Below are positions 10,808 through 60,542 of a DNA stretch of 64,000 nucleotides, piece by piece. Each line of letters opens with the position of its first letter. Positions within the stretch are counted from its first letter, which is position 1. Both the position numbers and the translations under genes were made by a program. A model generated the notes under the pieces. It was not told where the DNA came from. It saw nothing but the letters and a program-made list of their open reading frames with translations, and searched no databases. The stretch is from a virus (lineage: Duplodnaviria > Caudoviricetes). The stretch covers positions 1 through 64,000 of IMG/VR virus record IMGVR_UViG_3300021311_000141; one strand, given 5' to 3'.

Positions 10808-12564
10808 TATACGACCTTTGGAAGCGGTTTAGGATCATCGACAAACCACTGCGGCGGTTTAATAAGCGCCGGGAAAAGCGCATCAGCGGCCTTTTTTACG
10901 TCATCATACTGCACCGGAAGCAGCCGTTTTGCGTTGGCAATAAGCATATATGCCTTGCGCAGGACTTCTGTTTTTGGCGCAATTTGTATCATGCGTATCC
11001 AGTGTTCCTGTTCTTCATCACTGACAGATAGGCTCGAATAATAATCCCCAATCTTTCCCCAGTAGCATAAACCATACTGGGAGCCGAAACGGTCAATCTT
11101 GAAGCCGGCAAAACCCGTCGGCTGCGATAGAGCCTCGAACAGCGCCGTATTTGCGGCCTTTCCAAGAGCCTTGCGCCAAGCATCCAGTGCGGCCTTGGCG
11201 TCGGCCCGCTCTGCGGCCTTCTTTTGAGCGACGGCCGTGTACTTCTGCGCGACGACGGCAATATCCGGGTTCTTCCGTCGGCAAATAGCAAGTACCAACT
11301 TGAAGTGTTCCGGATCCGTTGCGGCAAGCTCGGCAAGCAGCTTTGGGCTGGCGAATGCCTGAAAGCCCATGGAGAACACCTCCGAAGAGCCGCCCTCATA
11401 GACCTTGCCCACATAGGGATCGATGAAGGAATCGGGGAACGCGACCTCATTGCTTCCATAGCCAGCATGTGCCAGTTCGCGCAGAGGCTTGGCCGGCCCT
11501 GTGGCTCTGTGACGAATGAATTGGTGACAGGCGCGCTGTGAGGCTTTATCCCAATTTTCTACAAGGTGGCCTATTTCGTGAAAGAGCGTTGTTTTGTTGA
11601 AGTCTCCTTGCACGAAAACTTGAAAGCGCCCGCTTGCAAAAGCACGGTTGCCGCCACGTTGGAGACAAAATTCCACAGGCCCTAACTTGCCGCCGACAAG
11701 CTGGTAAATCTGGGCCATGTCCTGCCGGATGCTCTCTTCGGTAAAACCAAGTTTTTTGAGCTTGTTGAGGGCATTGTCATTAAAGAATACGGCGTTGCTG
11801 GCCCACTCTTTTGCTATTTCGTCGGTGACGATGGAGGCATCCTTAAGCGCTGTAATGGTATCTGTCAGTATTGCCTCTTGCGCATCGTTTGCATTTTCGC
11901 GCAGGGCGTTGAGCTCTTCATATATCGGAAGTTCTTTTTCGCCTTCCGTGAGCAGTTTGGCTTCGTATTCTTTTCGGATTTTCCTAAGCGCCTTATGTCT
12001 CTTTTGCCACTGTGCCGACGTAGAACCAGGAAGACCCAACGCTTCTTTGTAGCGCTGATCCCCGTGCGCGGCATCCCACGCCGCATTAAACAACCCTCCA
12101 GCAAAGGATTCATCTACGCTTTTGCGAGCGGTCTTTTCGAGCTCTGCCAAGCGTTTCAGTTTTGGCAATAGCTCCTTGGCCTTTTCGGGTATTAACGGCA
12201 GCCTTTGCGCAATAAAATCGTTGCCCTGTTCACGCAGGGCTGCGTCCACATCCACATTTTGTCCTGCAGCCTGTAGCCGCGAACGCACGGCCTTGAGGTC
12301 ATCAGTGTTGAAAATGGCTTCTACGACGTCTGGGTGAGGCAGTCGGGCACGTTCCGAAAATTCATACAATTCCTCTGCGGCTATCTGTTCCCCCCGCGCA
12401 TCGCGGGCCAGGACATCGGCCAGAAAATCCAGGTCATCAGCGGCATGGCGTAGTATTTCCCCATCTTGCCCAAAACATGAGCCGATAACGCCGATCAGCC
12501 CGTCAAGCGTTGTCTGCCTGCGGATCTCCTCTGCAATTTGTTCAGGCGTCCACGAAAGGGGCAT
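10807..12564 (-). CDS. DdrB-like internal head protein with zincin metallopeptidase motif
   Basis: HExxH motif (TTLFHEIGHLVE) followed by DPYVGKVY..SSEVFSMG; located in the Dar operon. Confidence 0.55.
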   Translation of the reverse strand: MPLSWTPEQIAEEIRRQTTLDGLIGVIGSCFGQDGEILRHAADDLDFLADVLARDARGEQIAAEELYEFSERARLPHPDVVEAIFNTDDLKAVRSRLQAAGQNVDVDAALREQGNDFIAQRLPLIPEKAKELLPKLKRLAELEKTARKSVDESFAGGLFNAAWDAAHGDQRYKEALGLPGSTSAQWQKRHKALRKIRKEYEAKLLTEGEKELPIYEELNALRENANDAQEAILTDTITALKDASIVTDEIAKEWASNAVFFNDNALNKLKKLGFTEESIRQDMAQIYQLVGGKLGPVEFCLQRGGNRAFASGRFQVFVQGDFNKTTLFHEIGHLVENWDKASQRACHQFIRHRATGPAKPLRELAHAGYGSNEVAFPDSFIDPYVGKVYEGGSSEVFSMGFQAFASPKLLAELAATDPEHFKLVLAICRRKNPDIAVVAQKYTAVAQKKAAERADAKAALDAWRKALGKAANTALFEALSQPTGFAGFKIDRFGSQYGLCYWGKIGDYYSSLSVSDEEQEHWIRMIQIAPKTEVLRKAYMLIANAKRLLPVQYDDVKKAADALFPALIKPPQWFVDDPKPLPKVV

Positions 12565-12565
12565 A

Positions 12566-13528
12566 TTACGCCTCCGGCTTGTCGCCCCGGCCTTGGGCCT
12601 TGCGGCGGCGGATGGGCGTCCAGCGGGCCAGTCTCTCCCTGATTTGCTCCTCGCGCAGCCAGATGTCCTGCCCCTTGAACACGTCCGCTATTTCCTCTTG
12701 CGTCAGGAAACCGGCGTAGAGCTCGCCAAACCATTTTTTGAAATGCTCTTCCAGGAAAGTGGACTGCGTTTTCATGTCCCCGACCTTGCCCCATGAAAAG
12801 GCGCTGGCGTTGTGGATCATCATGGTGCAGTTGGGGGTGGTCTGAATTTCGTCGCATGGCATCGTGACAAGAGAGCCGGACGAGTAAGCGGTGATGACTT
12901 GGGCTATGGTGTTTGCCTTGGTGGCGAGCAGAGCCACATATACGGCTTGGGCTGAATCCGTGCGGCCGCCGTGCGAATTGACCTTGAGAATCACCGTGTC
13001 CACGGAGCGCGCATCGTCGATGGCGCGGACGATTTCGCGGAAAGTGTCCGGCGATTCGAACTCTTTGTCGATGTCTATCAGAATGTCGTCTCCGGCGCCG
13101 GATTCCTTTGGCCTGCGCCGCACTGCGCTGATCCGCCTTTTCAAATCCCCGTCTTCGGCCAGGATGGTGACGGCATCCTGCGGGATACCGGCGTTTTCAT
13201 ACACGCCATCTTCCGAGCGGTGCGCGGCCAGATAGGCAATGACGGGCTCATGCAGGGCCTTGATGTCCCCCCCGATCTCCTTGGCAACGCGCTCCAAAAT
13301 GCTCACGAACCGCACCACGGGTTCTTTGAGAAATTCTCCGGCCACAAGCTGCTCATAGAGCGACTTGAACGCCCCTGCCACTTTGCCTTCCAGCTTGGCG
13401 AAAGCGTCGGCAAGCTGCTTCTGAAGGCTGCGCTTGGTCTTGAAGTCCGGGCCGTTTTCCAGCGAGGCGAAACAGGTTTGAATTTCCTGCTGCAGCGCAC
13501 GTTTTTCCTTGAATGACAGCGCCATCAC
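12566..13528 (-). CDS. DdrA-like N-terminal domain fused to a ClpP-type (S14/S49) serine protease domain
   Basis: C-terminal half has NSHGG, AYSSGSL (catalytic Ser) and MMIHNAS (catalytic His); occupies the ddrA position, and LYEQLVAGEFLKEPVVRFVSIL..VIAYLAAH resembles P1 DdrA as recalled. Confidence 0.7.
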   Translation of the reverse strand: MMALSFKEKRALQQEIQTCFASLENGPDFKTKRSLQKQLADAFAKLEGKVAGAFKSLYEQLVAGEFLKEPVVRFVSILERVAKEIGGDIKALHEPVIAYLAAHRSEDGVYENAGIPQDAVTILAEDGDLKRRISAVRRRPKESGAGDDILIDIDKEFESPDTFREIVRAIDDARSVDTVILKVNSHGGRTDSAQAVYVALLATKANTIAQVITAYSSGSLVTMPCDEIQTTPNCTMMIHNASAFSWGKVGDMKTQSTFLEEHFKKWFGELYAGFLTQEEIADVFKGQDIWLREEQIRERLARWTPIRRRKAQGRGDKPEA

Positions 13529-15042
13529 ATCGCCCCCTGCTTTTTCTTGAGCAGTTCTGTCAGGTGGTCTGCAGCCCGATTGAACAAGGCCTCAAACTCT
13601 TCAAAGCGCCCTGCGGCTTCTGCCTGGCCTGCGGCTTCGTCCAACAGCCTGTCCACCTTGTCGGTGTCATCGTCATACTTGCCGGCAACAATGTCATTGA
13701 GGGTGGTGGCAAACACCGGCGTCGCCGTGTTGGCGCCGGTGTTTCCTCCTTCCGGCTCTTGGGGGGCTGGATACCAACCCTGGGCATCGTCCATGGCAGT
13801 CTGGGCGGAGGTATGCTCCTTTTGTGTGACCCATTCGCCGTCGTTGCGCCAGGTCTGGACGAGATACCAGTCTTTTCCCTTGTCGCGCACATGGGCGACG
13901 CGCATTTCTTCGGGCCGATATTCAGTCTTCGGGAGCGACAGGGGTACATCCAGGACAACAGGTTCGGAGGGGTCGGCATTGCCTCTTTCGTGGATAAACC
14001 GCCACTGGGCTTCTGCAGATTCCTGCGTTGTGATGGGGAGGTCGATGAGCTTGCCGTCCTTCAGGCGCATCTTCCAGACACCGCCATCCTTGACATAACT
14101 GCTGACGGTTGCGCCGTCAGGCGCACCGACGGAACCGGATTCCACGCCTGCGCCATTTCTCCCTGCTCCCTCGCCGGAGGTTCCGGCAGGCTTGCCCCCG
14201 CCCTGGGGCCGAGCCTTGCGCATGGCGTCGAGCTTGGCCTGCAGCTCGGCGTTGATGGTTTTCTGCTTTTCCAGCAAGGCCAGAGTATTGGAAAGCTGCG
14301 CCGTCACCGTTTCAGCATCCTTGGATGCCTGCGCCACCCCGTCCATGAGTTCGCGCTGCTTGTCCTCGGCGTTCTTCACAGCTTCGCGGGCTTCATCCAA
14401 CGCCTTGCGCTCCGCAGCGGCTTCCTTCTGGGTGCGCTCAAAGCGGGCACTGTTTTTCACAACCAACTGGGTGATCCGCTTGCCGATGGATTCAAGGGAC
14501 ACTTCGGAACCGTCCTCCGGGGCCACAACCTGCGTAATGTCCCTTTTGTTCAGCAGCCATTGGAAGGCCACTATGCGGTCGGACGGGGTGATTTTCTTCC
14601 GGTCGCCTTCGGGCGCATGGAAAATCACGGATACCACCTGTCCGTCGGAGAACGGAAGCTGCACCGTGACATAGGCGAAGCTCCCACGCTTGCGGGGCTT
14701 GCCCACAATGGCGTCCAGTGCTGTGATTTCCTTCCCGGCGAGGTGTCGGTTCAGGACACGCACCACAGCGGCCATGCGGCGCTCTGTCTTGCTGAACTTG
14801 TCAACGACGATGGCTTCAAGGATGTAGTCCGGGGAAATTTCATCAGTGCCGGGGTTGTAATAGGCGTCAACTTCCTCGAACGTGGCGCTTTCCATGAGCA
14901 TGTCGTAGTCATGCCGCGTGGCGCCGAGCTCGTTCAGGGCATTCACGAGCTCACTTTCCGAAAATCCGCGAGGATGCAGATCATCGCAATCAATAATCCG
15001 CATGGCGTACACGGGATTCATGGCCTCAACGCGCTCACACAT
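13525..15042 (-). CDS. darA: DarA-like defence-against-restriction protein
   Basis: VTVQLPFSDGQVVSVIFHAPEGDRKKITPSDRIVAFQWLLNKRDITQVVAPEDG and KNSARFERTQ are DarA N-domain motifs; coiled coil follows; adjacent to hdf. Confidence 0.85.
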   Translation of the reverse strand: MCERVEAMNPVYAMRIIDCDDLHPRGFSESELVNALNELGATRHDYDMLMESATFEEVDAYYNPGTDEISPDYILEAIVVDKFSKTERRMAAVVRVLNRHLAGKEITALDAIVGKPRKRGSFAYVTVQLPFSDGQVVSVIFHAPEGDRKKITPSDRIVAFQWLLNKRDITQVVAPEDGSEVSLESIGKRITQLVVKNSARFERTQKEAAAERKALDEAREAVKNAEDKQRELMDGVAQASKDAETVTAQLSNTLALLEKQKTINAELQAKLDAMRKARPQGGGKPAGTSGEGAGRNGAGVESGSVGAPDGATVSSYVKDGGVWKMRLKDGKLIDLPITTQESAEAQWRFIHERGNADPSEPVVLDVPLSLPKTEYRPEEMRVAHVRDKGKDWYLVQTWRNDGEWVTQKEHTSAQTAMDDAQGWYPAPQEPEGGNTGANTATPVFATTLNDIVAGKYDDDTDKVDRLLDEAAGQAEAAGRFEEFEALFNRAADHLTELLKKKQGAM

Positions 15043-15044
15043 GG

Positions 15045-15653
15045 CTATGCTCCTTGCGCCTTCTCAAGTTCGGCGATTTGCGCCTCAAGGGACGCTGTTT
15101 TCTTTCGTTCGGCATCCAGGGCCTTTTCTGCGGCTGCGAGTTCGGCGCGCGACGTTGCCGTGGAGGTGTTGGTGTCGGCCAACTGTTTTTCAAGGTCGGC
15201 GTTGGTCTGGGTGAGCTGCTGCAGGTCTTCGGTGGCCTGGGCCAGCTTTTCTTGGCGAGTGGTTGTGACAGAGGGTTTTGTCGGACGAATCTTGCGGCGT
15301 TCTCGCTGTATCTTCGCCCTTGCGTAGGCCTTGGCGTTGTCGTGAACATAGTCGATCATCTCGCCGACGGCCTTGTCCATGTTGTCCACGTTGCGCACGG
15401 GGACAACCTTGTTGTTCAGCTTGACTTGGTAGATAGTGCCGCCCGCCTTGACCTTGACAAGCATTTTCTGCCCGTCCTCAAAGATCAGGGTGAAGCTCTT
15501 AACCAGCATCCCGCTCTCTCGCTTTGCCTTGTTGGGGGCGTCCACGGAAGCAACGGGGCATTCAAACTTGGCAAATTTTTTTAGAATCGGCTTGAGCCCG
15601 TTCTCGGTCAATCTGTCAAAGGGCAGCACCAGTTGATTGCTCTTGGGCGGCAT
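15045..15653 (-). CDS. hdf: Hdf (homologue of DarA fragment)
   Basis: KRESGMLVKSFTLIFEDGQKMLVKVKAGGTIYQVKLNNKVVPV motif plus C-terminal coiled coil; first gene of the Dar operon. Confidence 0.8.
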   Translation of the reverse strand: MPPKSNQLVLPFDRLTENGLKPILKKFAKFECPVASVDAPNKAKRESGMLVKSFTLIFEDGQKMLVKVKAGGTIYQVKLNNKVVPVRNVDNMDKAVGEMIDYVHDNAKAYARAKIQRERRKIRPTKPSVTTTRQEKLAQATEDLQQLTQTNADLEKQLADTNTSTATSRAELAAAEKALDAERKKTASLEAQIAELEKAQGA

Positions 15654-15762: not shown

Positions 15763-16047
15763 TCAGCATTGCACCCAGATATAGTTGAGCGTCCACATGC
15801 CAAGACACACGAGGGAAGGCAGCAGCCAGTCCAGCACGCCCTTGACCGTCCACGCATCCGGCAGGAACCCGCCGTACCACGGCATGTTGGCCCTCTTGCC
15901 GCCGCAGTAGGCGGCGATGTAGCGGTACTCGGCCTGCGCGAACTCCCGGCCCATATACCAGATGGCGGGCAGGAACAGGGCTTCGCTGTTGCCGTGCGTT
16001 GCCGCCACGAAAAGGCAGAACAGCAGGGAAATTGCCGCGTGAATCAT
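15763..16047 (-). CDS. Small membrane protein, paralogue of the adjacent gene
   Basis: Hydrophobic segments; YMGREFAQAE and LDWLLP motifs mirror FFFGREHAQQQ and MDLYCP in the neighbour. Confidence 0.6.
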   Translation of the reverse strand: MIHAAISLLFCLFVAATHGNSEALFLPAIWYMGREFAQAEYRYIAAYCGGKRANMPWYGGFLPDAWTVKGVLDWLLPSLVCLGMWTLNYIWVQC

Positions 16048-16048
16048 G

Positions 16049-16375
16049 CTACACCGCCAAAAGAGCCAGCAGGGCCAGTAACAGCGTGGTCACAGTCGGG
16101 CAATACAGGTCCATCCGGCTTGGGTAGTCCCATTTCCAGAACTTGGCGGCTTCCCAGTCGCCCAGCGCGGCATCCTCCGCCCCGCTGAAAAAGTCCTGCT
16201 GCTGGGCGTGCTCACGGCCGAAGAAAAATCCAATCGGGGCGGCTGCTCCCGCACCTACGGCAAGGGCCGGGGAGACCCACCACAGGGCCAGCGTGACTAC
16301 GCCCTGCATGAGCGCCGCGTACACGCAATGCTCAATGGGCGTGAGGTCGCCGCCCAGAAATTCACGGAGATTCAT
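16049..16375 (-). CDS. Small membrane protein (start revised to MNLREF)
   Basis: GGAG-type SD before ATG at 16375; two hydrophobic segments; GREHAQ motif. Confidence 0.6.
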   Translation of the reverse strand: MNLREFLGGDLTPIEHCVYAALMQGVVTLALWWVSPALAVGAGAAAPIGFFFGREHAQQQDFFSGAEDAALGDWEAAKFWKWDYPSRMDLYCPTVTTLLLALLALLAV

Positions 16376-16391
16376 TGCCACTCCCGGTTTG

Positions 16392-16419
16392 GTGGCGGGG
16401 CCGTTTGGAGCCCCGCCAC
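16392..16419. terminator. GC-rich hairpin at the downstream end of the DGR-associated ORFs
   Basis: 10-bp stem gtggcggggc/gccccgccac with an 8-nt loop; no clear U-tract. Confidence 0.4.
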
Positions 16420-16422
16420 GCC

Positions 16423-16542
16423 TCAATCTATTTCCAGGGCAATCTTGAGTTGCTCAATTTCGTATTGCTGCCGCTTGATGATTGCCGCTTGGGCCTCAAC
16501 CAAGTCCACAAGCTCAAGAATTGAGCTTGGCACGGAGTTCAT
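16423..16542 (-). CDS. Small coiled-coil protein (39 aa; start revised to MNSVPSS)
   Basis: Overlaps the end of the upstream gene; amphipathic ILELVDLVEAQAAIIKRQQYEIEQLK. Confidence 0.45.
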   Translation of the reverse strand: MNSVPSSILELVDLVEAQAAIIKRQQYEIEQLKIALEID

Positions 16543-16738
16543 TGATGCGGTCGCGGACGGCCTGCCGCTTGGCATGGAGCTCCGCAATGTCATAGGGTGG
16601 TTCTTGTCCGGCAAGGACGTACTCCTGGTATTTGGCAACTTTCCAGTCGCCGATTTCGGACGCTCCCGAAGTGAGCTTGGACATGCCATCGTGAATTTCC
16701 TGTTCCATGTCCATGCGCTGTTCATCAGTCAGAGGCAT
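16514..16738 (-). CDS. Hypothetical protein downstream of the DGR RT
   Basis: AAGGAG SD; DWKVAKYQE..PYDIAELHAKRQAVRDRINEL is of a type common near phage tail and DGR loci. Confidence 0.65.
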   Translation of the reverse strand: MPLTDEQRMDMEQEIHDGMSKLTSGASEIGDWKVAKYQEYVLAGQEPPYDIAELHAKRQAVRDRINELRAKLNS

Positions 16739-16759: not shown

Positions 16760-17914
16760 TCAGTTGTAGTAGAACAACCGCAAGTAGAGATTGTCAGTGA
16801 AGCGAAGGTTCTGTCTGCGATGTGCGTACCGCAACACAGACCCTCGCCAGGACTGATAGGCATCGCTGACCATCTTGCGCGTCATCAGCCCGCGTTCGAA
16901 CAGTCCGCGAAAACGCTTCAGCCTTCGCCGTTCCCGCACAAAGGCCGAGTTGTCGGCCCTCGCTGCTATCCGCCTGCCCACAACTGCGTAGCGGGTTTTC
17001 AGATAGGTGAATCCATGCGACAGCCGGACAATTTGCGTCTTTTTGCGATTCACAAACATGCCAAGCGCCGTGGCTTGCCGCTCAAACTCTCCAAGCGCTT
17101 CCATAAGGCGTTGCCTGTCGCTGTGGATGACATATACGTCGTCCATGTAGCGCCCGTAGTATTTGAACCCCATGGCGCACTTGAAATAATTGTCGATCAC
17201 TGTGGGGAAGAACACGCCGCCGATTTGTGAAATCTGGCTGCCGATGCCCATGGACTTGGACAGTTTCAGCCTGCCCGTGGGCCCCTGATATGCGGCTTGG
17301 CGTTCCCTGTGCCGAATGCTGCTGAACGGCACATGCGCGCTCGAAGCGTACTCGGCATCGGTCATGTAAGAAACGTCGGGGCTGAACGACGACACGACAT
17401 GCTCCAACAACGGGCGTAGCGATGTGTCGCCGCCCAGGCGGCGCTGCACACTTTCCAGAAGTTGGGCATGGGGGATGTTGTCAAAGAATTTCGAGAAGTC
17501 GATGAGCAACACATACCCGTCAGGGTGGCGCCGCAGGAACTTCTCAAGGTGGACTTTCAGGCGTCTGCGCGCGAAATCCACACCCTTGTTTTTCAATGAC
17601 GCGCCGTTGTCGTATATCAGGTATGGGGAGAGGGCGGGAATGAGGGCATTGTCACACAAGGATCGCTGCACAATGCGGTCAGTGATGTGTTGTGACCTGA
17701 TGGGCCGCACCTTCCCGCGTTCGGCCAAGACAAACTCAAAAAACGGCATTTGCCGGTATGTTCCGTCCCGCAGGGCGCGGCGAAGCTGGCTGATGTTGCG
17801 CAGCAAATTCATCTGGCAGCGCTGCGTGGATGCTTTCCAGTCGCTCCCGCGTTTCGCCATCTGAAAGGCGTCGAACAGGTTGTTCGCGTCGCTCACAATA
17901 TCCAGATAGCTCAT
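16760..17914 (-). CDS. DGR reverse transcriptase
   Basis: 384 aa; RPIRSQHITDRIVQRSL, YDNGASLKNKG, DFSKFFDNI, GIGSQISQ, YGRYMDD and FTYLK RT motifs; no maturase or endonuclease domain. Confidence 0.95.
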   Translation of the reverse strand: MSYLDIVSDANNLFDAFQMAKRGSDWKASTQRCQMNLLRNISQLRRALRDGTYRQMPFFEFVLAERGKVRPIRSQHITDRIVQRSLCDNALIPALSPYLIYDNGASLKNKGVDFARRRLKVHLEKFLRRHPDGYVLLIDFSKFFDNIPHAQLLESVQRRLGGDTSLRPLLEHVVSSFSPDVSYMTDAEYASSAHVPFSSIRHRERQAAYQGPTGRLKLSKSMGIGSQISQIGGVFFPTVIDNYFKCAMGFKYYGRYMDDVYVIHSDRQRLMEALGEFERQATALGMFVNRKKTQIVRLSHGFTYLKTRYAVVGRRIAARADNSAFVRERRRLKRFRGLFERGLMTRKMVSDAYQSWRGSVLRYAHRRQNLRFTDNLYLRLFYYN

Positions 17915-18209
17915 ACCGTGCCCCTGTTGGTTCTCATAAGACGGTGAGGCATGTTCACAGCCGTGCCTGACGTGTCAGACGGCATCATGCGCTCGTGTTT
18001 ACCCCGCTCTCACGGGGAAGGACTGACCTTCCTTTCCTGTTTACTCGCATCGGCAACTGCCTACACATAGTGCGAGTACAGCAAATCGGGCGGACACCGC
18101 GCGAGTTGGACGCGTTGTTGTAGTTCGCATTGCCGTTGTTGTTGGCATTGGCGAAGTTCGTCGACGACGCCACCGCGCCCAACCACCAGTTGTAGCGGGC
18201 CTTACAAGG
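17915..18209 (-). ncRNA. DGR template RNA (TR plus structured 3' spacer)
   Basis: Non-coding gap between avd and RT; contains the TR and hairpins tactcgca/tgcgagta (18042-18078), ggaagg/ccttcc (18016-18032) and gccgt-ctgac/gtcag-acggc (17960-17983). Confidence 0.75.
18087..18201 (-). repeat. DGR template repeat (TR), 115 nt
   Basis: Reads ARYNWWLGAVASSTNFANANNNGNANYNNASNSRGVRP in the target frame; 11 AAY codons and 25 adenines. Confidence 0.95.
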
Positions 18210-18785
18210 TCAGCCCTGGCTTTTCTTGGAGGGGGCTTTCCGCTTGCCCTCCTTGATTTGCGCCAATATTCGGTTGTCGGACTTGCGCCACCCCTTGAGC
18301 AGCGCTATCTCCTTCTCTATCATCTCAACATATGGCATGAATTTCTCAATATCGCACGGTATCACATGGATGACGTACTGCATCTCCTGCAAAAGTTGCT
18401 CGCAGTTTATGATTGCGCGATTTTGCATGGAGCGGCGTTCCAGATATTCCCTCTCGTTTATCGCATAGATGGTGTTAGCCCCGATGATGTTTTGCATCAG
18501 GTCACGGAGCAATCCCAAAATGGTTTCCCGAAAGTGGTCTATCAACCAATGCGGATACCGTTCGATGACCGGCTGCTTGAAGCCGTATTTCTCGGCAATC
18601 TCGGCAAGCGCCCGCGTGTCCTCCTCGGACATGCCGCGCATACCCGATAGAACCTGCAGATTGCGCACCTTGTCCTTGATGGCAAAATCACGCAGCAGCA
18701 GATTGGTGAACGCCAGCCGCATCTTGAATGCGGTGTGGTAGAACTCCAAATCTGACAATGTGCGCTTGCTGACCGGCACTGACAT
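18210..18785 (-). CDS. avd: Accessory variability determinant (Avd-like four-helix protein)
   Basis: Helical protein with ANTIYAINEREYLERRSMQNRAIINCEQLLQEMQY..IEKEIALLKGWRKSD; sits between the target gene and TR. Confidence 0.85.
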   Translation of the reverse strand: MSVPVSKRTLSDLEFYHTAFKMRLAFTNLLLRDFAIKDKVRNLQVLSGMRGMSEEDTRALAEIAEKYGFKQPVIERYPHWLIDHFRETILGLLRDLMQNIIGANTIYAINEREYLERRSMQNRAIINCEQLLQEMQYVIHVIPCDIEKFMPYVEMIEKEIALLKGWRKSDNRILAQIKEGKRKAPSKKSQG

Positions 18786-18802
18786 ATCTTGCCCTGTATG
18801 GC

Positions 18803-18829
18803 ATCCCCGCCCCACAAGGGGGCGGGGAT
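18803..18829. promoter_or_regulatory. GC-rich hairpin/cruciform downstream of the VR (retrohoming recognition element)
   Basis: Perfect 11-bp stem atccccgcccc-acaag-ggggcggggat, 7 nt after the target stop codon. Confidence 0.8.
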
Positions 18830-18836
18830 TGAAGAT

Positions 18837-19922
18837 TTACGCGAACAGGAAAAACGGGCGGACACCGCGCGAGTGGGACGCGCTGGCGTAGTACGCACCG
18901 CCGCCGCGGCTGTCGGCATAGGCGAAGGCCGTCGACGACGCCACCGCGCCCAACCACCAGGCGTAGCGGGCCGCTCGTCCGTTGATCCACGTCGGGTCGA
19001 GCCGAAACAGGGCAAGCTGCGCCTTTTTGCAGCCGACATCGCGGGCGGAGGAACTCCAGACCGTGCCGCCGTACACCATGGGTTCGGAACACAGCCCGAT
19101 GAGCTCATCGGCCCACGCGCTGGCATTCGAGCTGCCGACCAGGGCGGAGCCTGCCATGCTGTCGGCAGTGGCATTAACGCCGGTTGTCAGCCAATCGCTG
19201 TGCCCGACAATGTGGCCGTCCATGCAGTTCGCAGCGTTCAGTTCGCCGTACACGGTGTTCTGCAGGGTCGCCCACAACGCGCAGCCGCGGAGTGCGCCGG
19301 TCGTGTCGTTGGTGGGGTTCATCTGGGCGCTGAACAGCGAGGTGTCGGGCATGAGGATAAGATGATTTGCCGTGGTTTGCCCGATGGTGTTCGGATTGCT
19401 GCCGTCAATGGCCAGGCCGTTGGTGGCGTCAACAGCGCCCATGTACTTCCAGTAGTTGAAATGGGCGATGCGGAAGTTCACATCGACCGTGCTGCCGCCG
19501 TGCGTGAACTTCCTGGTGAAGTAGTCGCCGATGTAGAGGTCGGAGAAGTCCCCTGCGGCCAGCTTCGCGGACAGCTCGGCCAGCGTATAGACGTTGGTCA
19601 GATTCTTGCCGCGGTAGATGCAGTTGTGGGCGGCGGCCACGTCGTCGCCGGTGTCGGAGCTGCGAAGGATGAGGTTGGCGCAGCTTTTCCCGTCAGTGGC
19701 AGCAGTGTCCACATAACTCTTATTCGCCCCATGGTTGGCCGCCGTAGGTGCGGGAAGCACTGGGGATGATGTGAAGGTTTTAACGCCGCCGATGGTCTCA
19801 TTATTCACTTTGTGTACTGCGTTGCCCAAAAGCTCTGCGGACTGCCGCAATACGGAAGAGGTTTCCTCAAGTTCTTCCTCGCAGTTCTGAATCGCCGCGA
19901 GCAATTCGTCGGAGGTGGCCAT
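18837..19922 (-). CDS. DGR target: tail-fibre/receptor-binding protein with C-terminal CLec-type variable domain (DUF6273-like)
   Basis: N-terminal coiled coil; fibre motifs VHKVNNETIGGVKTFTSSP and ANKSYVD; DFSDLYIGDYF; ends in WWL...RGVRPFFLF, typical of CLec-fold targets; AAGGAG SD at ATG 19922. Confidence 0.85.
   Translation of the reverse strand: MATSDELLAAIQNCEEELEETSSVLRQSAELLGNAVHKVNNETIGGVKTFTSSPVLPAPTAANHGANKSYVDTAATDGKSCANLILRSSDTGDDVAAAHNCIYRGKNLTNVYTLAELSAKLAAGDFSDLYIGDYFTRKFTHGGSTVDVNFRIAHFNYWKYMGAVDATNGLAIDGSNPNTIGQTTANHLILMPDTSLFSAQMNPTNDTTGALRGCALWATLQNTVYGELNAANCMDGHIVGHSDWLTTGVNATADSMAGSALVGSSNASAWADELIGLCSEPMVYGGTVWSSSARDVGCKKAQLALFRLDPTWINGRAARYAWWLGAVASSTAFAYADSRGGGAYYASASHSRGVRPFFLFA
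18855..18972 (-). repeat. DGR variable repeat (VR), 118 nt
   Basis: Codon-by-codon alignment to TR gives 16 substitutions, all at TR adenines, plus one extra GGC codon. Confidence 0.95.
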
Positions 19923-19962
19923 AGTCAAACTCCTTTTGCGGTGTCACCGCGCTTTTTATTGG

Positions 19963-20553
19963 TTACGATTGGCTTTCCTCGTATCCCAGCTCTGAAGCGC
20001 ACCATGAAACTATTTCTGCAAGGCGCGTTTCTAATATTGACACACGCGCTGCCATATTTGTAAGCAGTGTGTAATATTCAGCAAGCTGCGTCTGATAGGC
20101 AGTGATGATATCAGCAGAAATCAAGTCATACTGTTCACCATTGTAATACAGCAGATATGTATTGTTTGCCATGAGTGCGCGCGCTTCAATAGCTGCGCCC
20201 TGAAAATATATTGACTTCGCACCCGTGTTGTTGACGTTCAACGTGGGATTATTTGCAGTATTTGTGTTGGCAAACCTTACAATAACCGTTGCACCTTTGC
20301 GCAGGATGAAGTTGCTGGCATTAAGGACTTTTTCCGTTGTCCCAGCCGCCGTGGAACATTCACCGGAAACATGGCTATTCAGTTCTCTACGGACAACCTC
20401 AAACTCGGCCTGTGCGTTGGCGCCGGTCACGCCGTTCCGGGCGGTGAGCAGCACCATGCCGCCGTCGGTTTCGGCATGTTCCTTGATGAGGGTGTCGCCG
20501 GAGCGGCGGAAGTTGACGACCTTCTTGATGGTTTCGGAAATGGAAAAGGGCAT
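19963..20553 (-). CDS. Small tail-fibre-associated protein (module C plus AT-rich beta domain)
   Basis: First 51 codons nearly identical to those of 20638-21147; IVRFANTNTANNPTLNVNNTGAKSIY fibre-type motif. Confidence 0.65.
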   Translation of the reverse strand: MPFSISETIKKVVNFRRSGDTLIKEHAETDGGMVLLTARNGVTGANAQAEFEVVRRELNSHVSGECSTAAGTTEKVLNASNFILRKGATVIVRFANTNTANNPTLNVNNTGAKSIYFQGAAIEARALMANNTYLLYYNGEQYDLISADIITAYQTQLAEYYTLLTNMAARVSILETRLAEIVSWCASELGYEESQS

Positions 20554-20554
20554 G
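20402..20554. repeat. 153-bp direct repeat, copy 1 (copy 2 at 20996-21148)
   Basis: 151/153 identical by eye; encodes the shared N-terminus MPFSISETIKKVVNFRRSGD. Confidence 0.9.
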
Positions 20555-20585
20555 GGTACATCCCCTTATGATGAAACACAGCAAT

Positions 20586-20630
20586 GCCCGCGCAGGCTGG
20601 CGGTTTTATATCCCGCCCGCCTGCGCGGGC
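20586..20630. terminator. Long intergenic hairpin between the duplicated fibre genes
   Basis: 12-bp stem gcccgcgcaggc/gcctgcgcgggc plus inner ggcgg/ccgcc; terminator or mRNA-stabilising role uncertain. Confidence 0.45.
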
Positions 20631-20637
20631 GAATTGG

Positions 20638-21147
20638 TTAGGCCTGTTCCACGATTACCAGGCCACCATCGGCGATGCCTTCGGGCATGGTTTCGGGCGT
20701 GCTGGCGACGTGCAGCACGTCCACTTCCTTGTTCTGCACATCGCCCCAGTTCACGGTCACATCCATGGATTCCGCCTCGGCAGTCTTCACCCAGCCGTTG
20801 GTGGTGTCCTGATAGATGTACTTGGCCGCACCGGCAGCGACGGTGTTGTCGGCGCTGGCGTCGATCACCCAGCACTGGTCACCCACGTTCATGCCGGTCA
20901 GGGCGTCGCGGGCGGCAATGTTGGCCACGACGGACATCTTGGTCTGCCCGTCGATGGTGCTCTGCATGCCAGAGATGAGCGTACGGATGGCTTCGAACTC
21001 GGCCTGCGCGTTGGCGCCGGTCACGCCGTTCTGGGCGGTGAGCAGCACCATGCCGCCGTCGGTTTCGGCATGTTCCTTGATGAGGGTGTCGCCGGAGCGG
21101 CGGAAGTTGACGACCTTCTTGATGGTTTCGGAAATGGAAAAGGGCAT
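20638..21147 (-). CDS. Small tail-fibre-associated protein (modules C plus B)
   Basis: Shares its N-terminus with 19963-20553 and the IAARDALTGMNVGDQCWV.DASADNTVAAGAA module with 21242-21667. Confidence 0.65.
   Translation of the reverse strand: MPFSISETIKKVVNFRRSGDTLIKEHAETDGGMVLLTAQNGVTGANAQAEFEAIRTLISGMQSTIDGQTKMSVVANIAARDALTGMNVGDQCWVIDASADNTVAAGAAKYIYQDTTNGWVKTAEAESMDVTVNWGDVQNKEVDVLHVASTPETMPEGIADGGLVIVEQA
20824..20921. repeat. 98-bp direct repeat, copy 1 (copy 2 at 21395-21492)
   Basis: 93/98 identical by eye. Confidence 0.85.
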
Positions 21148-21241
21148 GATTTACACTCCTGTGCTTTATTTTGTTCCAGTGCTGTCTCCGGAGTAACAAT
21201 CACTGGACATGGCCTCGGCCCAATGCTTTGGCCGGATTGAC

Positions 21242-21667
21242 TTATATTTTTTCAATATCCACAGTCAGCCTCCCTCCATCCCGCAATCCTTCCGGCATGG
21301 ACGTTGGCAGCGTGGTTACATGGAGGGCGTCATCCATACTTTCACTCTCTGTTGTCTTGACCCATCCAGAGGATGCCCCCTGCCAGACATAACCGGCCGC
21401 ACCGGCAGCGACGGTGTTGTCGGCGCTGGCGTCGAGCACCCAGCACTGGTCACCGACGTTCATGCCGGTCAGAGCATCACGGGCGGCAATGTCGGGAGCG
21501 ACAAAGCTTTTCGTGTTCCCTTGAACGGCCTGTCTCAATGACTGCATCTCGTGCTTAAATTCAGACAAAATGGTTGGGAGATATTTTTTTGTTTCCTCGT
21601 CATAGACTTCACTTGTCGGTGTCTTTAGGGGTTTCCCATTGCGTGTAAAATGCGCTAGATCTACCAT
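21242..21667 (-). CDS. Small tail-fibre-associated protein (modules A plus B)
   Basis: Same B module and MPEG.DGG C-terminal motif as 20638-21147. Confidence 0.65.
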   Translation of the reverse strand: MVDLAHFTRNGKPLKTPTSEVYDEETKKYLPTILSEFKHEMQSLRQAVQGNTKSFVAPDIAARDALTGMNVGDQCWVLDASADNTVAAGAAGYVWQGASSGWVKTTESESMDDALHVTTLPTSMPEGLRDGGRLTVDIEKI

Positions 21668-21680
21668 AATGCACCCCCGT

Positions 21681-22526
21681 TTAGTCTATATGTGTAATAT
21701 TGACTATCAGCGCAGCATCTTCAGGTGCAACTGATTTGTTATCAACGATAGAGATAGGAGCAATTTTTGCCCCTCCGACAGCTGTATATCCAGCAGGGGA
21801 TAAAGTTTCTGTGAACACAGGTATGACGCTGTTGCCGATACCCATAGCTAACGCCAGTTCAACACTTGCAATGCGGCGCATTAAAATAATGTTATGCTTT
21901 GCAGTATGAACAAATCGCAACATTTCCTGCATCTTGGCAAATTCAACATCATTCTTGAGATCAATTCTCGCCAGCGATTCCAAAATACTGTTCCTGATTA
22001 AACGTATTCTGGAAGCCGTTGCCCTTGCCTCTCGAATCAAAGAATGCTGCACAAAACCAAATATCTGCACTGATTCTGCGACATCACGCCTATCAACATT
22101 GATCATGTCATCCGTGATGTCAGAAGAAATATCCTCAACAGTAACTGTGGCGAGCAGAATATGGTGGTCATTCAGTTTTTCTCTCGCCACAATTCGCTGA
22201 TAGCCGGGCTGCGTTTCGACGTAGAATGCCTCAATGACGATATGCCATGTGCCGGACGCCGGGATTTCCACATACCCAGGGTCGTCCATGGTGACAGTGA
22301 GGCTGTAGCCATCGCGCTCCACAACGGCGACGCTGCGGGAGGAGCCGTCCTCATGCGTGACAAGCACTTTGCCTGCCCCGCCGGGCTTGACCACGAAGCC
22401 GCGGTACACGCCGGGGCTAAGAATGCCAGCAAGTTTACGGTTAAGGGCGCTGGATACATACCGCTCGCCAAACCGCACCGACTGGCGCAGCACAGGCGCG
22501 GACATTGTTTCGATGGACTGACTCAT
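21681..22526 (-). CDS. Short tail-fibre anchor homologous to the constant N-terminus of P1 gpS
   Basis: ERYVSSALNRKLAGILSPGVYRGFVVKPGG resembles the P1 gpS N-terminus as recalled; only 281 aa, with an AT-rich helical C-terminal part. Confidence 0.75.
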   Translation of the reverse strand: MSQSIETMSAPVLRQSVRFGERYVSSALNRKLAGILSPGVYRGFVVKPGGAGKVLVTHEDGSSRSVAVVERDGYSLTVTMDDPGYVEIPASGTWHIVIEAFYVETQPGYQRIVAREKLNDHHILLATVTVEDISSDITDDMINVDRRDVAESVQIFGFVQHSLIREARATASRIRLIRNSILESLARIDLKNDVEFAKMQEMLRFVHTAKHNIILMRRIASVELALAMGIGNSVIPVFTETLSPAGYTAVGGAKIAPISIVDNKSVAPEDAALIVNITHID

Positions 22527-22528
22527 GG

Positions 22529-22969
22529 TTAACCCTCCGTCCCTTCAACGGCTTCCACGGGGAATGTGAGCGCCGGGTAACTGCGGTCTGCCTCGGTCGG
22601 CGTCACCCAGTCGGGAAACGTCGTGCAGACCGCAACCAGATCGCCGTCCTGGTCGTAGATGCCAATGAGGTTGTATTTATGGGGGGTCGATACCGCGCCG
22701 GCGGGTATTTCGCATTTGCAGACGGTGACGCCGTTGGAATACTCGGCCTCCACGGCTCCCCGGTAAAATTCTTCCGGCACGTCAGTCATGTTGGCTGGGA
22801 TGTCGAGCAGGACAGGGGCGTCCGGGTCGGAAACATCGACGAGGCCAAAGCCCGCCCGGAACTCTTCAAAACGGGGGCAGACACCTTGCCCGGCGGCCGC
22901 CATGCCGACCTTTTCATAGTATTTATTCAGCAGCTTGGAACGCTGATAGACAGTTCCGTCCGACATCAC
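22529..22969 (-). CDS. Tail fibre assembly/structural protein (P1 gpR-like)
   Basis: SKLLNKYY and YNLIGIYDQDGDLVAVC motifs; lies between gp16 and S as in P1. Confidence 0.7.
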   Translation of the reverse strand: MMSDGTVYQRSKLLNKYYEKVGMAAAGQGVCPRFEEFRAGFGLVDVSDPDAPVLLDIPANMTDVPEEFYRGAVEAEYSNGVTVCKCEIPAGAVSTPHKYNLIGIYDQDGDLVAVCTTFPDWVTPTEADRSYPALTFPVEAVEGTEG

Positions 22970-24375
22970 ACATACCCTCCATAGGGATAATCAAGCGGGG
23001 CAAAATCCACGCTGATGCCGTCTTCACCGGGGAGACGGTCAAGCGGGTTTTCCATCTCCTCAAAAGCCGGCATTGCGGCATGAAAACGGCATCTTTCGGA
23101 AGCCGTGGAACAGATGAACGATGCAGGCACAGTGAATGCGCGCGTTTTGCGCTCCTGCTGGATGCCGAGCGCATGTTGAAAATCCAGCGCAACGCTTTTT
23201 TCGAGCTCGCGCAGCACCATGCTGATGGCTGACGTATCAGCCGCCTCGTTGCCGCTTCGCACTCTGTCGAGAGGGAGCAAATCGCCAAAGCCGTCAGGCA
23301 GGTAGCGGTCGAGGCGCCATGCGGATACGTCAAGAAAACGTATGCCCTGGCTCCGTTCGGTTTCCCCATGCCGTTTGAGCGTGCCGGGCGCAGCGTACAC
23401 GGTCGAAGTCCTGCCCCGCTTGCCGCTCAACGACATGGCAGGAGCAGAGAGGGGGACGCAAACAAGCCGTTCGCCTTCGGCATAGACGGTGGAAAGGCGC
23501 TGCGGCGCCATGAGTTCTCGCCCCGGCATCACAAGATCAAGCGGCAGCAGGTCGCCGAATCCGTCGGGGAGAAAACGGTCGAGGTGCCAGTCCGAATCAG
23601 CCCAAAAGGCTATGGCGACATGCCGCGAAACGTCGCGCGGCATCTCGAAAACGCCAATGTCGGCATGGCGCACGTCTGCAGGAGTGTAGTCGTAGCGGGC
23701 GCCCAGCGGCCCGAACTGAAGTTCTATCCTGTGGCAGTTGTCCCACGTCACTGACATGGCTGGGTCAAACACGCCCAGGTCGTACCGAATGAACCAAAGA
23801 AAGCCGTCAAAGACGATATGGAGCGGCTTTGTGCGAACCACCAGCGGGTGCGCCTCGTCGCGGAAACGGTCTTTGGAAAGGCCCTCTCGAAAGAGCCCCA
23901 GCTTGTCCACGCCCACGATGCCGCGCGATGTGAGAAAATACCCGTCCGGCGGAATATTCTTCGACCACGCATCCTCAAGCAGGTAATCACTTGTGATGAA
24001 CTCGGTGCCATATTCCTTGGCGGAAGGAGCAAAGAGCGGATACCACTCAACCGGGAAATCGCCGAAGTGCCTGCGGAACACGGAGCGCAGAATCAGCTCC
24101 ATGTCCTTGTATTCAATTTCGAGCCGACGCCATGCCAGGGCTATGGGACGGTCAGCCTCTTTCGGCATCTCGAAAGAGAAATAGTCGCCCATCTGGCGGA
24201 TTTTCTTGGCAAGGTCGGCATCGTCCGCCGTGTAGGAAGAGCGCAGCCGTTCGAGCCTGGACATCTCCGGGTCAAAAAAATCTTCCCAGAGACGTTCCAA
24301 GGCTGTGGCGAAGTCGGCCCACCTGGGCTCCTTCGCCTTCGCAGGCGTGAGGCGGTTTACAAGCCAGTTGTTCAA
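22966..24375 (-). CDS. Baseplate protein (P1 gp16-like) with internal repeats
   Basis: WLVNRLTPAKAKEPRWADFATALERLWE resembles P1 gp16; TTG start; two LDR.LPDGFGDLLPLD motifs. Confidence 0.75.
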   Translation of the reverse strand: MNNWLVNRLTPAKAKEPRWADFATALERLWEDFFDPEMSRLERLRSSYTADDADLAKKIRQMGDYFSFEMPKEADRPIALAWRRLEIEYKDMELILRSVFRRHFGDFPVEWYPLFAPSAKEYGTEFITSDYLLEDAWSKNIPPDGYFLTSRGIVGVDKLGLFREGLSKDRFRDEAHPLVVRTKPLHIVFDGFLWFIRYDLGVFDPAMSVTWDNCHRIELQFGPLGARYDYTPADVRHADIGVFEMPRDVSRHVAIAFWADSDWHLDRFLPDGFGDLLPLDLVMPGRELMAPQRLSTVYAEGERLVCVPLSAPAMSLSGKRGRTSTVYAAPGTLKRHGETERSQGIRFLDVSAWRLDRYLPDGFGDLLPLDRVRSGNEAADTSAISMVLRELEKSVALDFQHALGIQQERKTRAFTVPASFICSTASERCRFHAAMPAFEEMENPLDRLPGEDGISVDFAPLDYPYGGYV

Positions 24376-49332: not shown

Positions 49333-49576
49333 TGTTGCGCAGCACATTTTCAGTTTCCGTGACGCGCCATTGATTCTTTTCATCCTGCACCTTCCTTGCC
49401 GCCAGGGCTTCCGCCTCTGCGGCATCGGCAAGCCCCTGGGCCTGCTGTAAGAGGTCAATACGGGCGGTCGCCGTGTCCAGCCGTGCCTCCACGCTCCAGA
49501 CGTGCCGGGCGACTGCGTAGATGAGGCACAGCAGCGCCACGGCGCCGGCAGCCATGGACAGCCACACGCGGCCCAT
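49220..49576 (-). CDS. i-spanin (Rz-like)
   Basis: N-terminal TM, coiled coil, C-terminal WGRAVLPDDVIRLL. Confidence 0.85.
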   Translation of the reverse strand: MGRVWLSMAAGAVALLCLIYAVARHVWSVEARLDTATARIDLLQQAQGLADAAEAEALAARKVQDEKNQWRVTETENVLRNNDDWGRAVLPDDVIRLLRHGATDGGAGAVPAPGDASR

Positions 49577-55794: not shown

Positions 55795-56049
55795 TCAATC
55801 TTCATCCCGACGCCCCCGCCGTCTTCCACGTTCATTCTGCAGAGCTTCCCGTATTTCGCTCTCCCGAATCTTGACGTATTGATCTAGCCACGCCTGCATC
55901 TCCGCCGTCGGGGCATAAGCGGCAACACGGCCATTCCCGGTTAGGCGGAACTTGCAATGGTGATAGGTGCGCAGCACATCAAGAGCCATCATGCTGAACC
56001 ACCTGTACGATCCTCTCTCCAATCCAGCGCATGACGGGCACGGCCTCAT
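55795..56049 (-). CDS. Hypothetical protein
   Basis: Coupled ORF. Confidence 0.45.
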   Translation of the reverse strand: MRPCPSCAGLERGSYRWFSMMALDVLRTYHHCKFRLTGNGRVAAYAPTAEMQAWLDQYVKIRESEIREALQNERGRRRGRRDED

Positions 56050-60533: not shown

Positions 60534-60542
60534 CTAATTTTC

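Follow-up and report, generated by a model that had tools for sequence, protein, structure and literature searches.

The closest described systems are the DGR of phage BPP-1 and the invertible segment of phage P1. In BPP-1 (mtd-avd-TR-brt), a target gene with a variable repeat (VR) at its 3′ end, avd, the template repeat (TR) and the reverse transcriptase (RT) gene follow one another in that order; mutagenesis is adenine-specific, TR is rich in AAY codons, a GC-rich IMH lies at the 3′ end of VR with a diverged IMH* in TR, and a hairpin stands downstream of VR. The protein diversified in BPP-1 sits distally in the tail fibre, and its variable domain is lectin-like. In P1 (Punavirus), two-state inversion of the C segment by Cin exchanges S/U and S′/U′, and the variable part is the C-terminus of S; the P1 record lists the S C-terminus, U, U′, Sv′ and cin in this slot. 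DGR prophages are also described in Desulfovibrio piger, of the Desulfovibrionaceae; these are Mu-like (group B), and their targets have FGE-sulfatase domains (PMC12724379).

The locus analysed here has the gene order, mutagenic specificity, IMH/IMH* pair and hairpin of BPP-1, and its target can be likened to the BPP-1 fibre protein, presumably with a corresponding distal place in the virion. It differs in that its target body is related to DUF6273 and is not Mtd-like, Avd has 191 residues, the VR allele is one codon longer than TR, and the virion module is that of a P1-type myovirus whereas BPP-1 is a podovirus. Its flanks are homologous to those of P1 and keep their order (sit, pmgA, bplA, 16, R, S N-terminus, hdf, darA), and between the invariant N-terminal part of S and the hdf-darA operon each phage has a device for varying tropism, a presumed one in the window phage. 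Unlike P1, it has no homologues of cin, cix, U or the S C-terminus, its variable part is encoded by a separate gene, and mutagenic retrohoming could yield up to ~1e15 DNA variants. The D. piger prophages resemble it in Avd, in their tail-fibre-like target and probably in the host family, Desulfovibrionaceae, but they are not P1-type and lack Dar genes (PMC12724379).

The window, our term for the whole stretch of DNA analysed, comprises positions 1-64,000 of the 72,254-bp IMG/VR record IMGVR_UViG_3300021311_000141. Its minus strand reads gp16, R, short S, three small fibre genes, target, GC-rich hairpin, avd, TR and RT, followed 3′ of RT by small ORFs, hdf and darA (Table 1). A sequence-only reading of this DNA had proposed this order with its coordinates, and every element was found in its place. 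We consider the locus, with a probability of about 0.85, to be a canonical, active DGR in the tail-fibre region of an integrated prophage with a P1-type virion and Dar anti-restriction genes. The record is listed in IMG/VR as a provirus and recurs, identical in sequence, within a 173.5-kb contig; on these grounds the phage appears to be integrated, in contrast to the plasmid prophage of P1. Its host is likely a gut member of Desulfovibrionaceae.

Table 1 Features of the DGR locus and its flanks, in minus-strand order (positions in the window)
Feature	Size	Position	Strand	Basis or remark
gp16-like baseplate/tail-tube protein	469 aa	22966-24375	minus	phrog_2015 E 2.6e-39; 27% to P1 gp16 (tblastn)
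R-like small tail-fibre protein	145 aa	22529-22966	minus	size and position of P1 R
Short S	281 aa	21681-22526	minus	homologue of P1 S N-terminal (baseplate-proximal) domain
Small fibre gene f141		21242-21667	minus	fibre-module gene
Small fibre gene f169		20638-21147	minus	fibre-module gene
Small fibre gene f196		19963-20553	minus	fibre-module gene
DGR target gene	361 aa	18837-19922	minus	carries VR at 3′ end
Variable repeat (VR)	122 nt	18851-18972	minus	near-repeat comparison with TR; IMH at 3′ end
GC-rich hairpin	11-bp stem, 5-nt loop	18803-18829	minus	directly 3′ of target stop codon
avd	191 aa	18210-18785	minus	phrog_3206 'Avd protein of DGR', E 2.4e-9
Template repeat (TR)	119 nt	18083-18201	minus	near-repeat comparison with VR
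TR-RT spacer, presumed part of DGR RNA		17915-18082	minus	position only
DGR reverse transcriptase	384 aa	16760-17914	minus	PF00078 (RVT_1) E 2.8e-14; phrog_1423 E 9.5e-64
hdf		15045-15653	minus	phrog_1620 Hdf-like E 1e-35
darA		13525-15042	minus	PF18788 DarA_N E 4.4e-32

Homologues of sit, pmgA, bplA, 16, the S N-terminus, hdf, darA, darB, prt and pro keep the P1 order. The virion and Dar proteins are 25-36% identical to those of P1 at the amino-acid level (tblastn), including 30-31% for Hdf and DarA. The region 16760-22969 gave no blastn match to P1-type phages among GenBank phages, and the bplA product is 29.5% identical to P1 BplA, which would place the phage outside the genus Punavirus. 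The short S aligned with residues 20-184 of P1 S (32% identity, BLASTP E 5e-17) and matched tail-fibre PHROGs 2631 and 454. The R-like protein showed a weak collinear match to P1 R (BLASTP E 0.002) and is 60-77% identical to the R proteins of relatives; its assignment as R is probable mainly from its position. For the small ORFs between RT and hdf, homology to lyd genes was not demonstrable, and they were assigned mostly by position. P1 Cin, U, U′ and the S C-terminus had no tblastn match in the 72,254-bp record at E ≤ 1. With the sit-pmgA-bplA-16-R-S and hdf-darA flanks conserved and cin and U lacking homologues, the proposal that the DGR occupies the slot of the P1 C segment is borne out. 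The companion proposal, a target separate from a truncated S, holds in that the target is its own gene and S carries only the P1 N-terminal domain; the truncation, however, is not peculiar to this phage, as a short S (188-310 aa) is the normal architecture across the clade.

The RT translation contains motif 4 as IGSQISQ, fitting the DGR pattern [LIV]GxxxSQ, and the catalytic box YMDD (pattern YxDD). It has no close relative among the RTs of deposited phages, the best match in GenBank phages being Roseburia phage Shimadzu (36% identity), and the Avd protein is 51-55% identical to those of related cassettes. Folded as DNA, the hairpin reached -17.2 kcal/mol (z -4.0), and none of 200 shuffles was as good; comparable hairpins lie 3′ of VR in the related loci L086, L091, L120 and L122. 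The TR-RT spacer matched no Rfam family.

VR ends 14 nt from the stop codon of the target ORF and lies 0.9 kb from RT. All 17 substitutions between TR and VR fall at TR adenines (hypergeometric p ~2e-14), 16 of them mutagenic and the other an A>T at the IMH border, which is the same in both natural VR alleles described below. The sequence-only count of 16 differences was thus right about adenine specificity and left out the border A>T, and its 25 TR adenines and 11 AAY codons agree with our recount of TR, which adds one border A to the 25 of the core. TR and VR share an identical GC-rich stretch of 16 nt, beyond which they diverge, consistent with an IMH/IMH* assignment. A feature absent from the earlier reading is one extra GGC codon in VR, which makes it 3 nt longer than TR; a single copying of the present TR therefore does not simply account for the window allele. 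A VR longer than its TR by a codon is atypical for a DGR.

Adenine-specific VR polymorphism, the check proposed with the sequence-only reading, was seen between the window and L089, an independent ENA sample ~98% identical to the window phage over 21 kb. The two TRs are identical, whereas the VRs differ by a 3-nt indel and 17 substitutions, 17/17 at TR adenines; the 956 nt of the target gene outside VR have 4 differing sites (Fisher p 8e-14). Changes in at least one VR allele affect 23 of the 26 TR adenines, and the extra GGC codon is also missing from a contig of a third sample. Judging from this VR-restricted, adenine-only variation between natural copies with a constant TR, the window DGR is active in nature. 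It might instead be a decaying relic, its TR/VR differences old and retrohoming ended. The 3-nt length difference, which would not arise from a single retrohoming off the present TR unless RT slipped, speaks for such decay. Against it, intact RT, avd and TR recur across samples with 99-100% conservation, whereas 17 adenine sites in VR differ, and the sister phages L091, L096 and L104, otherwise near-identical, differ almost only in VR (17-18 differences over 21,398 nt, 15-18 of them in VR and 0 in TR). We give a relic very little credence.

In the active DGR that we favour, TR would be transcribed and RT with Avd would make cDNA, misincorporating opposite adenines. The mutagenised cDNA would then replace VR, directed by the GC-rich IMH and the downstream hairpin. 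Rewriting would reach up to 11 AAY codons, and three further codons that contain adenine, in the lectin-like domain at the C-terminus of the target.

The target consists of a unique N-terminal helix and linker (residues 1-89) and a DUF6273-related, C-type-lectin-like body (residues 90-361). Its AF2 model (pLDDT 85) found no match in the PDB with Foldseek at E ≤ 0.001. VIA-align gave 9qa6, a protein of unrelated function, as the best hit (Z 13.5), TvpA (2y3c) at Z 5.7, and dozens of C-type lectin domains at Z 4-5 over residues ~110-361. A C-type-lectin fold of the variable domain is at most moderately supported, and similarity to solved DGR variable proteins is modest.

We infer that the target is a virion protein attached to S that affects host range, as the distal receptor-binding module of a tail fibre carried on the short S. 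This would fit its tail-fibre neighbourhood, the tail-fibre PHROGs matched by its N-terminus, its receptor-binding, tail-fibre and DUF6273 neighbours in BFVD, and its C-type-lectin-like fold. Bacterial DGR targets are often non-phage surface proteins, and the target could accordingly be a surface or secreted protein expressed by the lysogen (e.g. for superinfection exclusion or host-surface adhesion) that merely adjoins the fibre genes. This would suit a target that itself matched no Pfam family and whose place in the virion is putative. We regard it as improbable: the gene lies on the same strand as the late tail-fibre operon, inside it, between the fibre genes and avd; the PHROG and BFVD matches point to fibres; homologues carry the N-terminal fibre modules collagen, Phage_fiber_2 and BppL_N; and the translation shows no evident signal peptide or lipobox. 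Among the target homologues, 14 of 43 matched PF19789.

The DGR is also found beyond this phage. All related P1-type loci whose slot was covered in full and whose bplA identity was ≥ 42% have a DGR in that same slot, and TR/VR pairs with an RT were found between R and hdf in L086, L091/96/104, L092, L097, L106, L108, L120 and L122, in genomes that include Desulfovibrio, Bilophila and Desulfocicer. The state reaches relatives at 39-46% bplA identity, and a cin homologue was present in none of about 40 related P1-type loci. Its recurrence in related phages makes the arrangement a trait of the lineage and not a one-off. The synteny survey of cin versus DGR thus showed the arrangement to be common among relatives, and the novelty claimed for a DGR in a P1-like, Dar-encoding phage stands in part: many related genomes carry it, but no described case was found. 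RT is absent from every deposited, described P1-like or DarA-encoding phage that we examined, and the searchable literature yielded no description of a DGR in the P1-type slot. The mechanism is that of a canonical DGR and what is new is a P1-type phage lineage carrying it, which makes this an evolutionary and ecological advance and not a mechanistic one. DGR-driven tropism switching would be extended to P1-type myoviruses, whose described host-range switches have so far been DNA inversions.

The sequence-only reading went further and had retrohoming replace inversion, an ancestral P1-type phage losing its Cin-invertible C segment and receiving a DGR in its place. In P1 and the enterobacterial phages related to it, cin does stand in the slot where the window has a DGR and no cin. 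This direction is nevertheless unlikely and is not upheld, because the DGR-in-slot state is common to many P1-type phages down to the low bplA identities given above, cin is missing from the surveyed loci, and the annotation of the P1 C segment gives it 92-94% identity to the Mu G region. Such identity marks the C segment as an imported cassette and points to a recent arrival in P1.

The Desulfovibrionaceae P1-type DGR prophages L091/L096/L104 (Desulfovibrio sp. SGI.169, mouse-gut isolate), L092 (Bilophila) and L086 (goat rumen MAG) have their DGR in the same slot as the window, in the order R, short S, target, avd, TR, RT, hdf, darA, and their VRs likewise vary in nature. They differ from it in their RTs, which are 23-27% identical to the window RT and form a separate clade, and in their targets, which are unrelated outside the VR scaffold motif. 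In a careful tree of RTs sampled by similarity to the window RT, the latter grouped with that of L003 (100/99), and both fell inside a clade of 13 RTs from non-P1 contexts (100/100). An AU test rejected a single clade for all RTs of P1-type phages (p 0.0006), a group named after a quick tree had been viewed. Residues 90-361 of the target are 64% identical to the L003 target, while the N-terminus is unrelated. Because the window cassette belongs to a different RT lineage from those of its P1-type relatives, a cassette swap is likely. This cassette, made up of target residues 90-361, avd, TR and RT, also occurs in otherwise unrelated phages. The slot from R to hdf thus holds a Mu-like invertible segment in P1, a DGR of one RT lineage in most Desulfovibrionaceae-type relatives, and a DGR of another lineage in the window phage.

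These comparisons suggest a broader, three-part picture, to which, taken jointly, we lend tentative credence at slightly under even odds. The interval from the S N-terminal gene to hdf-darA may be conserved as a docking site at which cassettes that diversify tropism can be exchanged: Punavirus would have a Mu-type invertible segment there, and Desulfovibrionaceae phages DGRs of at least two unrelated lineages. Unrelated phages may pass on the lectin-like body, avd, TR and RT together, joined near target residue 90 to an N-terminal adaptor specific to the lineage. Finally, if RT slips on the (AAC)3 run, loops might vary in length as well as by substitution. One homologous slot would thus have received two unrelated answers to tropism variation, with a modular exchange of DGR cassettes. 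Isolate- or strain-titled records (Desulfovibrio sp. SGI.169, mouse-gut Desulfovibrionaceae isolate) contain near-identical relatives that bear DGRs, so the system would be experimentally tractable in sulfate-reducing gut bacteria, of which few phages have so far been characterised.

The three small fibre genes, which most of the Desulfovibrionaceae P1-type DGR prophages lack, matched phrog_7946 and tail-fibre phrog_32345. They are built from common DNA modules, the repeats D1 (77% identity) and D2 (96% identity), and the f169 protein is a mosaic whose N-terminus aligns with that of f196 and whose C-terminus aligns with that of f141. Their homologues in L086 are 41-54% identical.

The DGR in the window is real, active and correctly located; it is of canonical type and lies in a P1-type lineage of phages that had not been described before. 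The whole region is encoded on the minus strand, in the order gp16, R, short S, three fibre genes, target, hairpin, avd, TR, RT, small ORFs, hdf and darA. In mechanism the element is of the canonical BPP-1 type, with the defining features tested being present, save that a C-type-lectin fold of the target is only likely, and Rfam searches found no family in the window. The sequence-only reading had described a real and correctly located DGR, its sole omission being an extra codon in VR. The small ORFs between RT and hdf did not match the PHROGs of P1 LydA, LydB or LydC; two of them have hydrophobic segments, and a holin-like role would be a guess.

Features of the DGR region and its P1-syntenic flanks in the window
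Feature	Position	Strand	Basis
gp16-like protein	22966-24375	-	phrog_2015, E 2.6e-39
R-sized ORF	22529-22966	-	position and size
short S (281 aa)	21681-22526	-	tail-fibre PHROGs
three small fibre genes (f141, f169, f196)	21242-21667, 20638-21147, 19963-20553	-	shared modules
target ORF (361 aa)	18837-19922	-	carries VR
GC hairpin	18803-18829	-	11-bp stem, z -4.0
avd	18210-18785	-	phrog_3206 'Avd protein of DGR', E 2.4e-9
TR	18083-18201	-	near-repeat of VR
RT	16760-17914	-	PF00078 E 2.8e-14; phrog_1423 E 9.5e-64; IGSQISQ and YMDD
three small ORFs	15763-16738	-	between RT and hdf
hdf	15045-15653	-	phrog_1620, E 1e-35
darA	13525-15042	-	DarA_N, E 4.4e-32

The record belongs to the IMG/VR provirus class (72,254 bp, 58% GC), and the identical sequence was also found inside a 173.5-kb metagenome contig; a search for host flanks among contigs encoding the pro-like protein found no record. 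Among GenBank phages, the baseplate protein and DarA had their best matches in P1, P7, D6 and other Punavirus-like phages, at ~30% amino acid identity. Homologues of sit, pmgA, bplA, 16 and the S N-terminus, followed by hdf and darA, are collinear with annotated P1, and beyond them a gene for a darB-like 2210-aa helicase protein, prt and pro also follow the P1 order. The short S aligned with P1 S (987 aa) over residues 20-184 of the latter (32% identity, E 5e-17), and R was assigned chiefly by size and position (P1 R match, E 0.002). In P1, the interval from the constant part of S to hdf contains the S C-terminus, U, U', Sv', cin and the lyd genes, whereas in the window it contains the small fibre genes, the DGR and three small ORFs. 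Searches of the whole record for Cin, U, U' and the S C-terminus found no homologue, even at E <= 1. Because the flanks follow the P1 order and these homologues are absent, the claim that the DGR sits where P1 has its Cin-invertible C segment holds. The further claim that retrohoming replaced inversion in this phage assumes a direction that is unsupported; the P1 C segment is itself annotated as Mu-like (92-94% identical to Mu). "P1-like" is valid for the virion and Dar modules only. When the region was compared with GenBank phages by blastn, the sole match was 86 nt in a TR/VR-like region of Acutalibacter phage Fontainebleau.

The three small fibre-module genes (19963-21667) are mosaics. The first 53 residues encoded by f169 are nearly identical to those of f196 (96% at the DNA level over 167 nt), and f169 matches f141 in the C-terminal part (77% over 190 nt). 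Homologues of these genes lie beside a different DGR target in L086, a goat rumen relative, and a Logan assembly contig breaks within 19963-21667.

A repeat search recovered TR and VR as two ungapped blocks at offsets of 771 and 768 nt. Their alignment showed 17 substitutions, all 17 at TR adenines, and one extra GGC codon in VR; the probability that 17 mismatches would all fall on the 26 adenines of the 119-nt TR is about 2e-14. VR ends 14 nt before the stop codon of the target. One of the substitutions, an A>T ending the GC-rich block, is shared by the two natural VR alleles and was therefore counted as an IMH/IMH* difference; once it is set aside, the counts made from sequence alone (16 mutagenic sites, 25 adenines, 11 AAY codons) are reproduced. 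The extra codon falls within 18899-18913 (TR counterpart 18131-18142), beside an (AAC)3 run, where TR reads AAC AAC AAC GGC AAT and the window VR reads GAC AGC CGC GGC GGC GGT. It is missing from the VR of L089, a closely related phage from another sample, which has no indel, and from the contig of run X3, from a third study. Both RT slippage on the AAC run with later adenine mutagenesis and a plain GGC duplication fit its origin.

L089, the second member of the 90% cluster of the target, is a 53-kb contig from a different ENA sample, with about 98% identity to the window across 21 kb and the same gene order. The TRs of the two phages show no difference. Their VRs differ by 17 substitutions, each at a TR-adenine position, and by a 3-nt indel, as against 4 differing sites in the other 956 nt of the target gene (Fisher p 8e-14). 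Together, the two alleles have 23 of the 26 TR adenines altered in at least one of them. A VR that differs at adenines only, with a constant TR, marks mutagenic retrohoming that is ongoing or very recent; the adenine-specific polymorphism proposed as a check on the element is borne out. A second and very clean demonstration of DGR activity came from three near-identical sister phages (L091, L096 and L104), whose 21,398-nt stretches differ at just 17-18 positions, 15-18 of them within the 103-nt VR and none in TR. We also compared four independent gut metagenome runs as Logan contigs, which break at TR and VR; what they showed of VR alleles was the lack of the extra codon in run X3, and coverage gaps in these contigs carry no evidential weight.

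To survey relatives, we used the baseplate protein, which has many metagenomic relatives, Desulfovibrionaceae MAGs among them; single-protein searches of IMG/VR with gp16 and hdf found no close relatives. An alignment of its relatives (A3) led to 13 GTDB genome loci and 23 IMG/VR loci. These and other contigs of relatives were screened for homologues of the window proteins and of P1 Cin, S and U, as well as for repeat pairs with an adenine bias. The contigs of P0009, P0015 and P0016 end before the slot between short S and hdf or give no information on it. An adenine-only TR/VR pair, an avd-sized gene and an RT were found in the same slot, after R and a short S, in a goat rumen Desulfovibrionaceae MAG (L086/87/90), in the sister phages (mouse-gut Desulfovibrionaceae isolate A70_62_DF_DSS, CAJTFO010000001; Desulfovibrio sp. 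SGI.169, NZ_JBNPLS010000005; and an IMG/VR contig), in Bilophila (L092), in Desulfocicer (L097), and in L106, L108, L120 and L122. In relatives whose contig extends that far, hdf-darA lies directly beyond the DGR. Where the slot was fully covered, all 7 lineages with bplA identity to the window of >=42% had a DGR, as did 1 of about 14 lineages at <=41%. No cin was found among the screened loci. The DGR arrangement is lineage-wide. In its usual architecture, a short S of 188-310 aa precedes a separate fibre gene (338-944 aa) that contains VR; a short S, previously read as a truncation in this phage, is normal for the whole clade.

Two other arrangements were seen. In L119 (12506-13979), a distant P1-type relative, hdf comes directly after R and a very short S-like gene, leaving the slot essentially empty. 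In L127 (11422-13545; 70% bplA identity), a 206-aa ORF and an ORF6N/ORF6C anti-repressor-like gene are inserted between bplA and gp16; its short S is followed by conventional fibre genes (532 and 332 aa) and a DUF4376 protein, and the contig stops short of the full slot.

The window RT has just 23-27% identity to RTs of other P1-type phages, compared with 58% to the RT of L003, a non-P1 IMG/VR contig, and about 50% to a dozen others. Contigs with these similar RTs have no other window gene within 10 kb, except that L003 has an anti-repressor and L013 a small ORF in common with it. We built a careful maximum-likelihood tree of 26 RTs without the long-branch rows L086 and L122; in it, the window and L089 joined L003 (100/99) within a 13-row clade from non-P1 contexts (100/100), and the remaining P1-type RTs were placed apart. 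An AU test rejected a single clade of all P1-type-phage RTs (p 0.0006), a group named after a quick tree had been seen. Across residues 90-361, the target has 64% identity to that of L003, and the N-terminus (residues 1-89; 95 aa searched) has a homologue in none of the loci examined but L089. The target of the nearest P1-type relative has the VR scaffold motif alone in common with that of the window. The most economical reading is that a cassette of an unrelated phage (lectin-like body, avd, TR and RT) would have replaced an earlier DGR of the lineage and been joined to a local N-terminal adaptor. Exchange of DGR cassettes is detectable, and different tropism devices have come to occupy the slot: P1 has Mu-like inversion there, and other phages have DGRs of at least two lineages. 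The Ant anti-repressor of the window (phrog_524; 1-930, plus strand) is 60% identical to L003:12812-13450, 1.7 kb past the L003 RT.

An AlphaFold2 model of the target, built on a 43-sequence alignment (mean pLDDT 85), has a helix at its N-terminus, then a disordered linker (34-81) and a globular body modelled with confidence (90-361). Foldseek against the PDB returned nothing at E <= 0.001, and PDB sequences searched with a sequence profile of the target family yielded no meaningful match. VIA-align matched the model to the N-terminal domain of the Thomasclavelia ramosa IgA peptidase (9qa6, Z 13.5), the Legionella Lcl C-terminal domain (Z 7.2), the DGR variable protein TvpA (2y3c, Z 5.7) and dozens of C-type lectin domains (Z 4-5). 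Its BFVD neighbours are phage receptor-binding, tail-collar and DUF6273 proteins; PF19789 (DUF6273) is matched by 14 of the 43 homologues, and some others have N-terminal collagen, Phage_fiber_2 or BppL_N modules. These structural matches, neighbours and homologue domains make a lectin-like receptor-binding tip likely, though not proven. Gene context suggests that the target is present in the virion and attached to S.

No RVT_1 gene was found in five representative DarA-encoding GenBank phages (P1, D6, Cronobacter JK004, Xanthomonas Rb1 and Acinetobacter ABMM1). In GenBank, both RT lineages matched only non-P1 phages. Full-text literature searches gave no description of a DGR in a P1-type phage; large DGR catalogues may list such elements without the P1 context. 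The DGR prophages of Desulfovibrio piger are Mu-like (PMC12724379). What our analysis adds is the lineage-wide arrangement, a slot filled by different tropism devices, and detectable cassette exchange.

Elsewhere in the provirus, the ddrA position (12566-13528) is occupied by a gene for a 320-aa protein with a ClpP/NfeD-type serine protease domain (PF00574, phrog_1827), besides which there is a separate pro-like gene at 1002-2006. On one strand (4175-15653), hdf, darA and the genes for this protease, a 585-aa protein and the 2210-aa DarB-like SNF2/helicase protein are contiguous, whereas P1 has its darB at a separate place from the hdf-darA operon. The record also contains a transposase gene (60480-61763, plus strand; phrog_506, E 2.4e-52), a DNA methyltransferase gene (56046-57059) and an endolysin gene (49576-50181).
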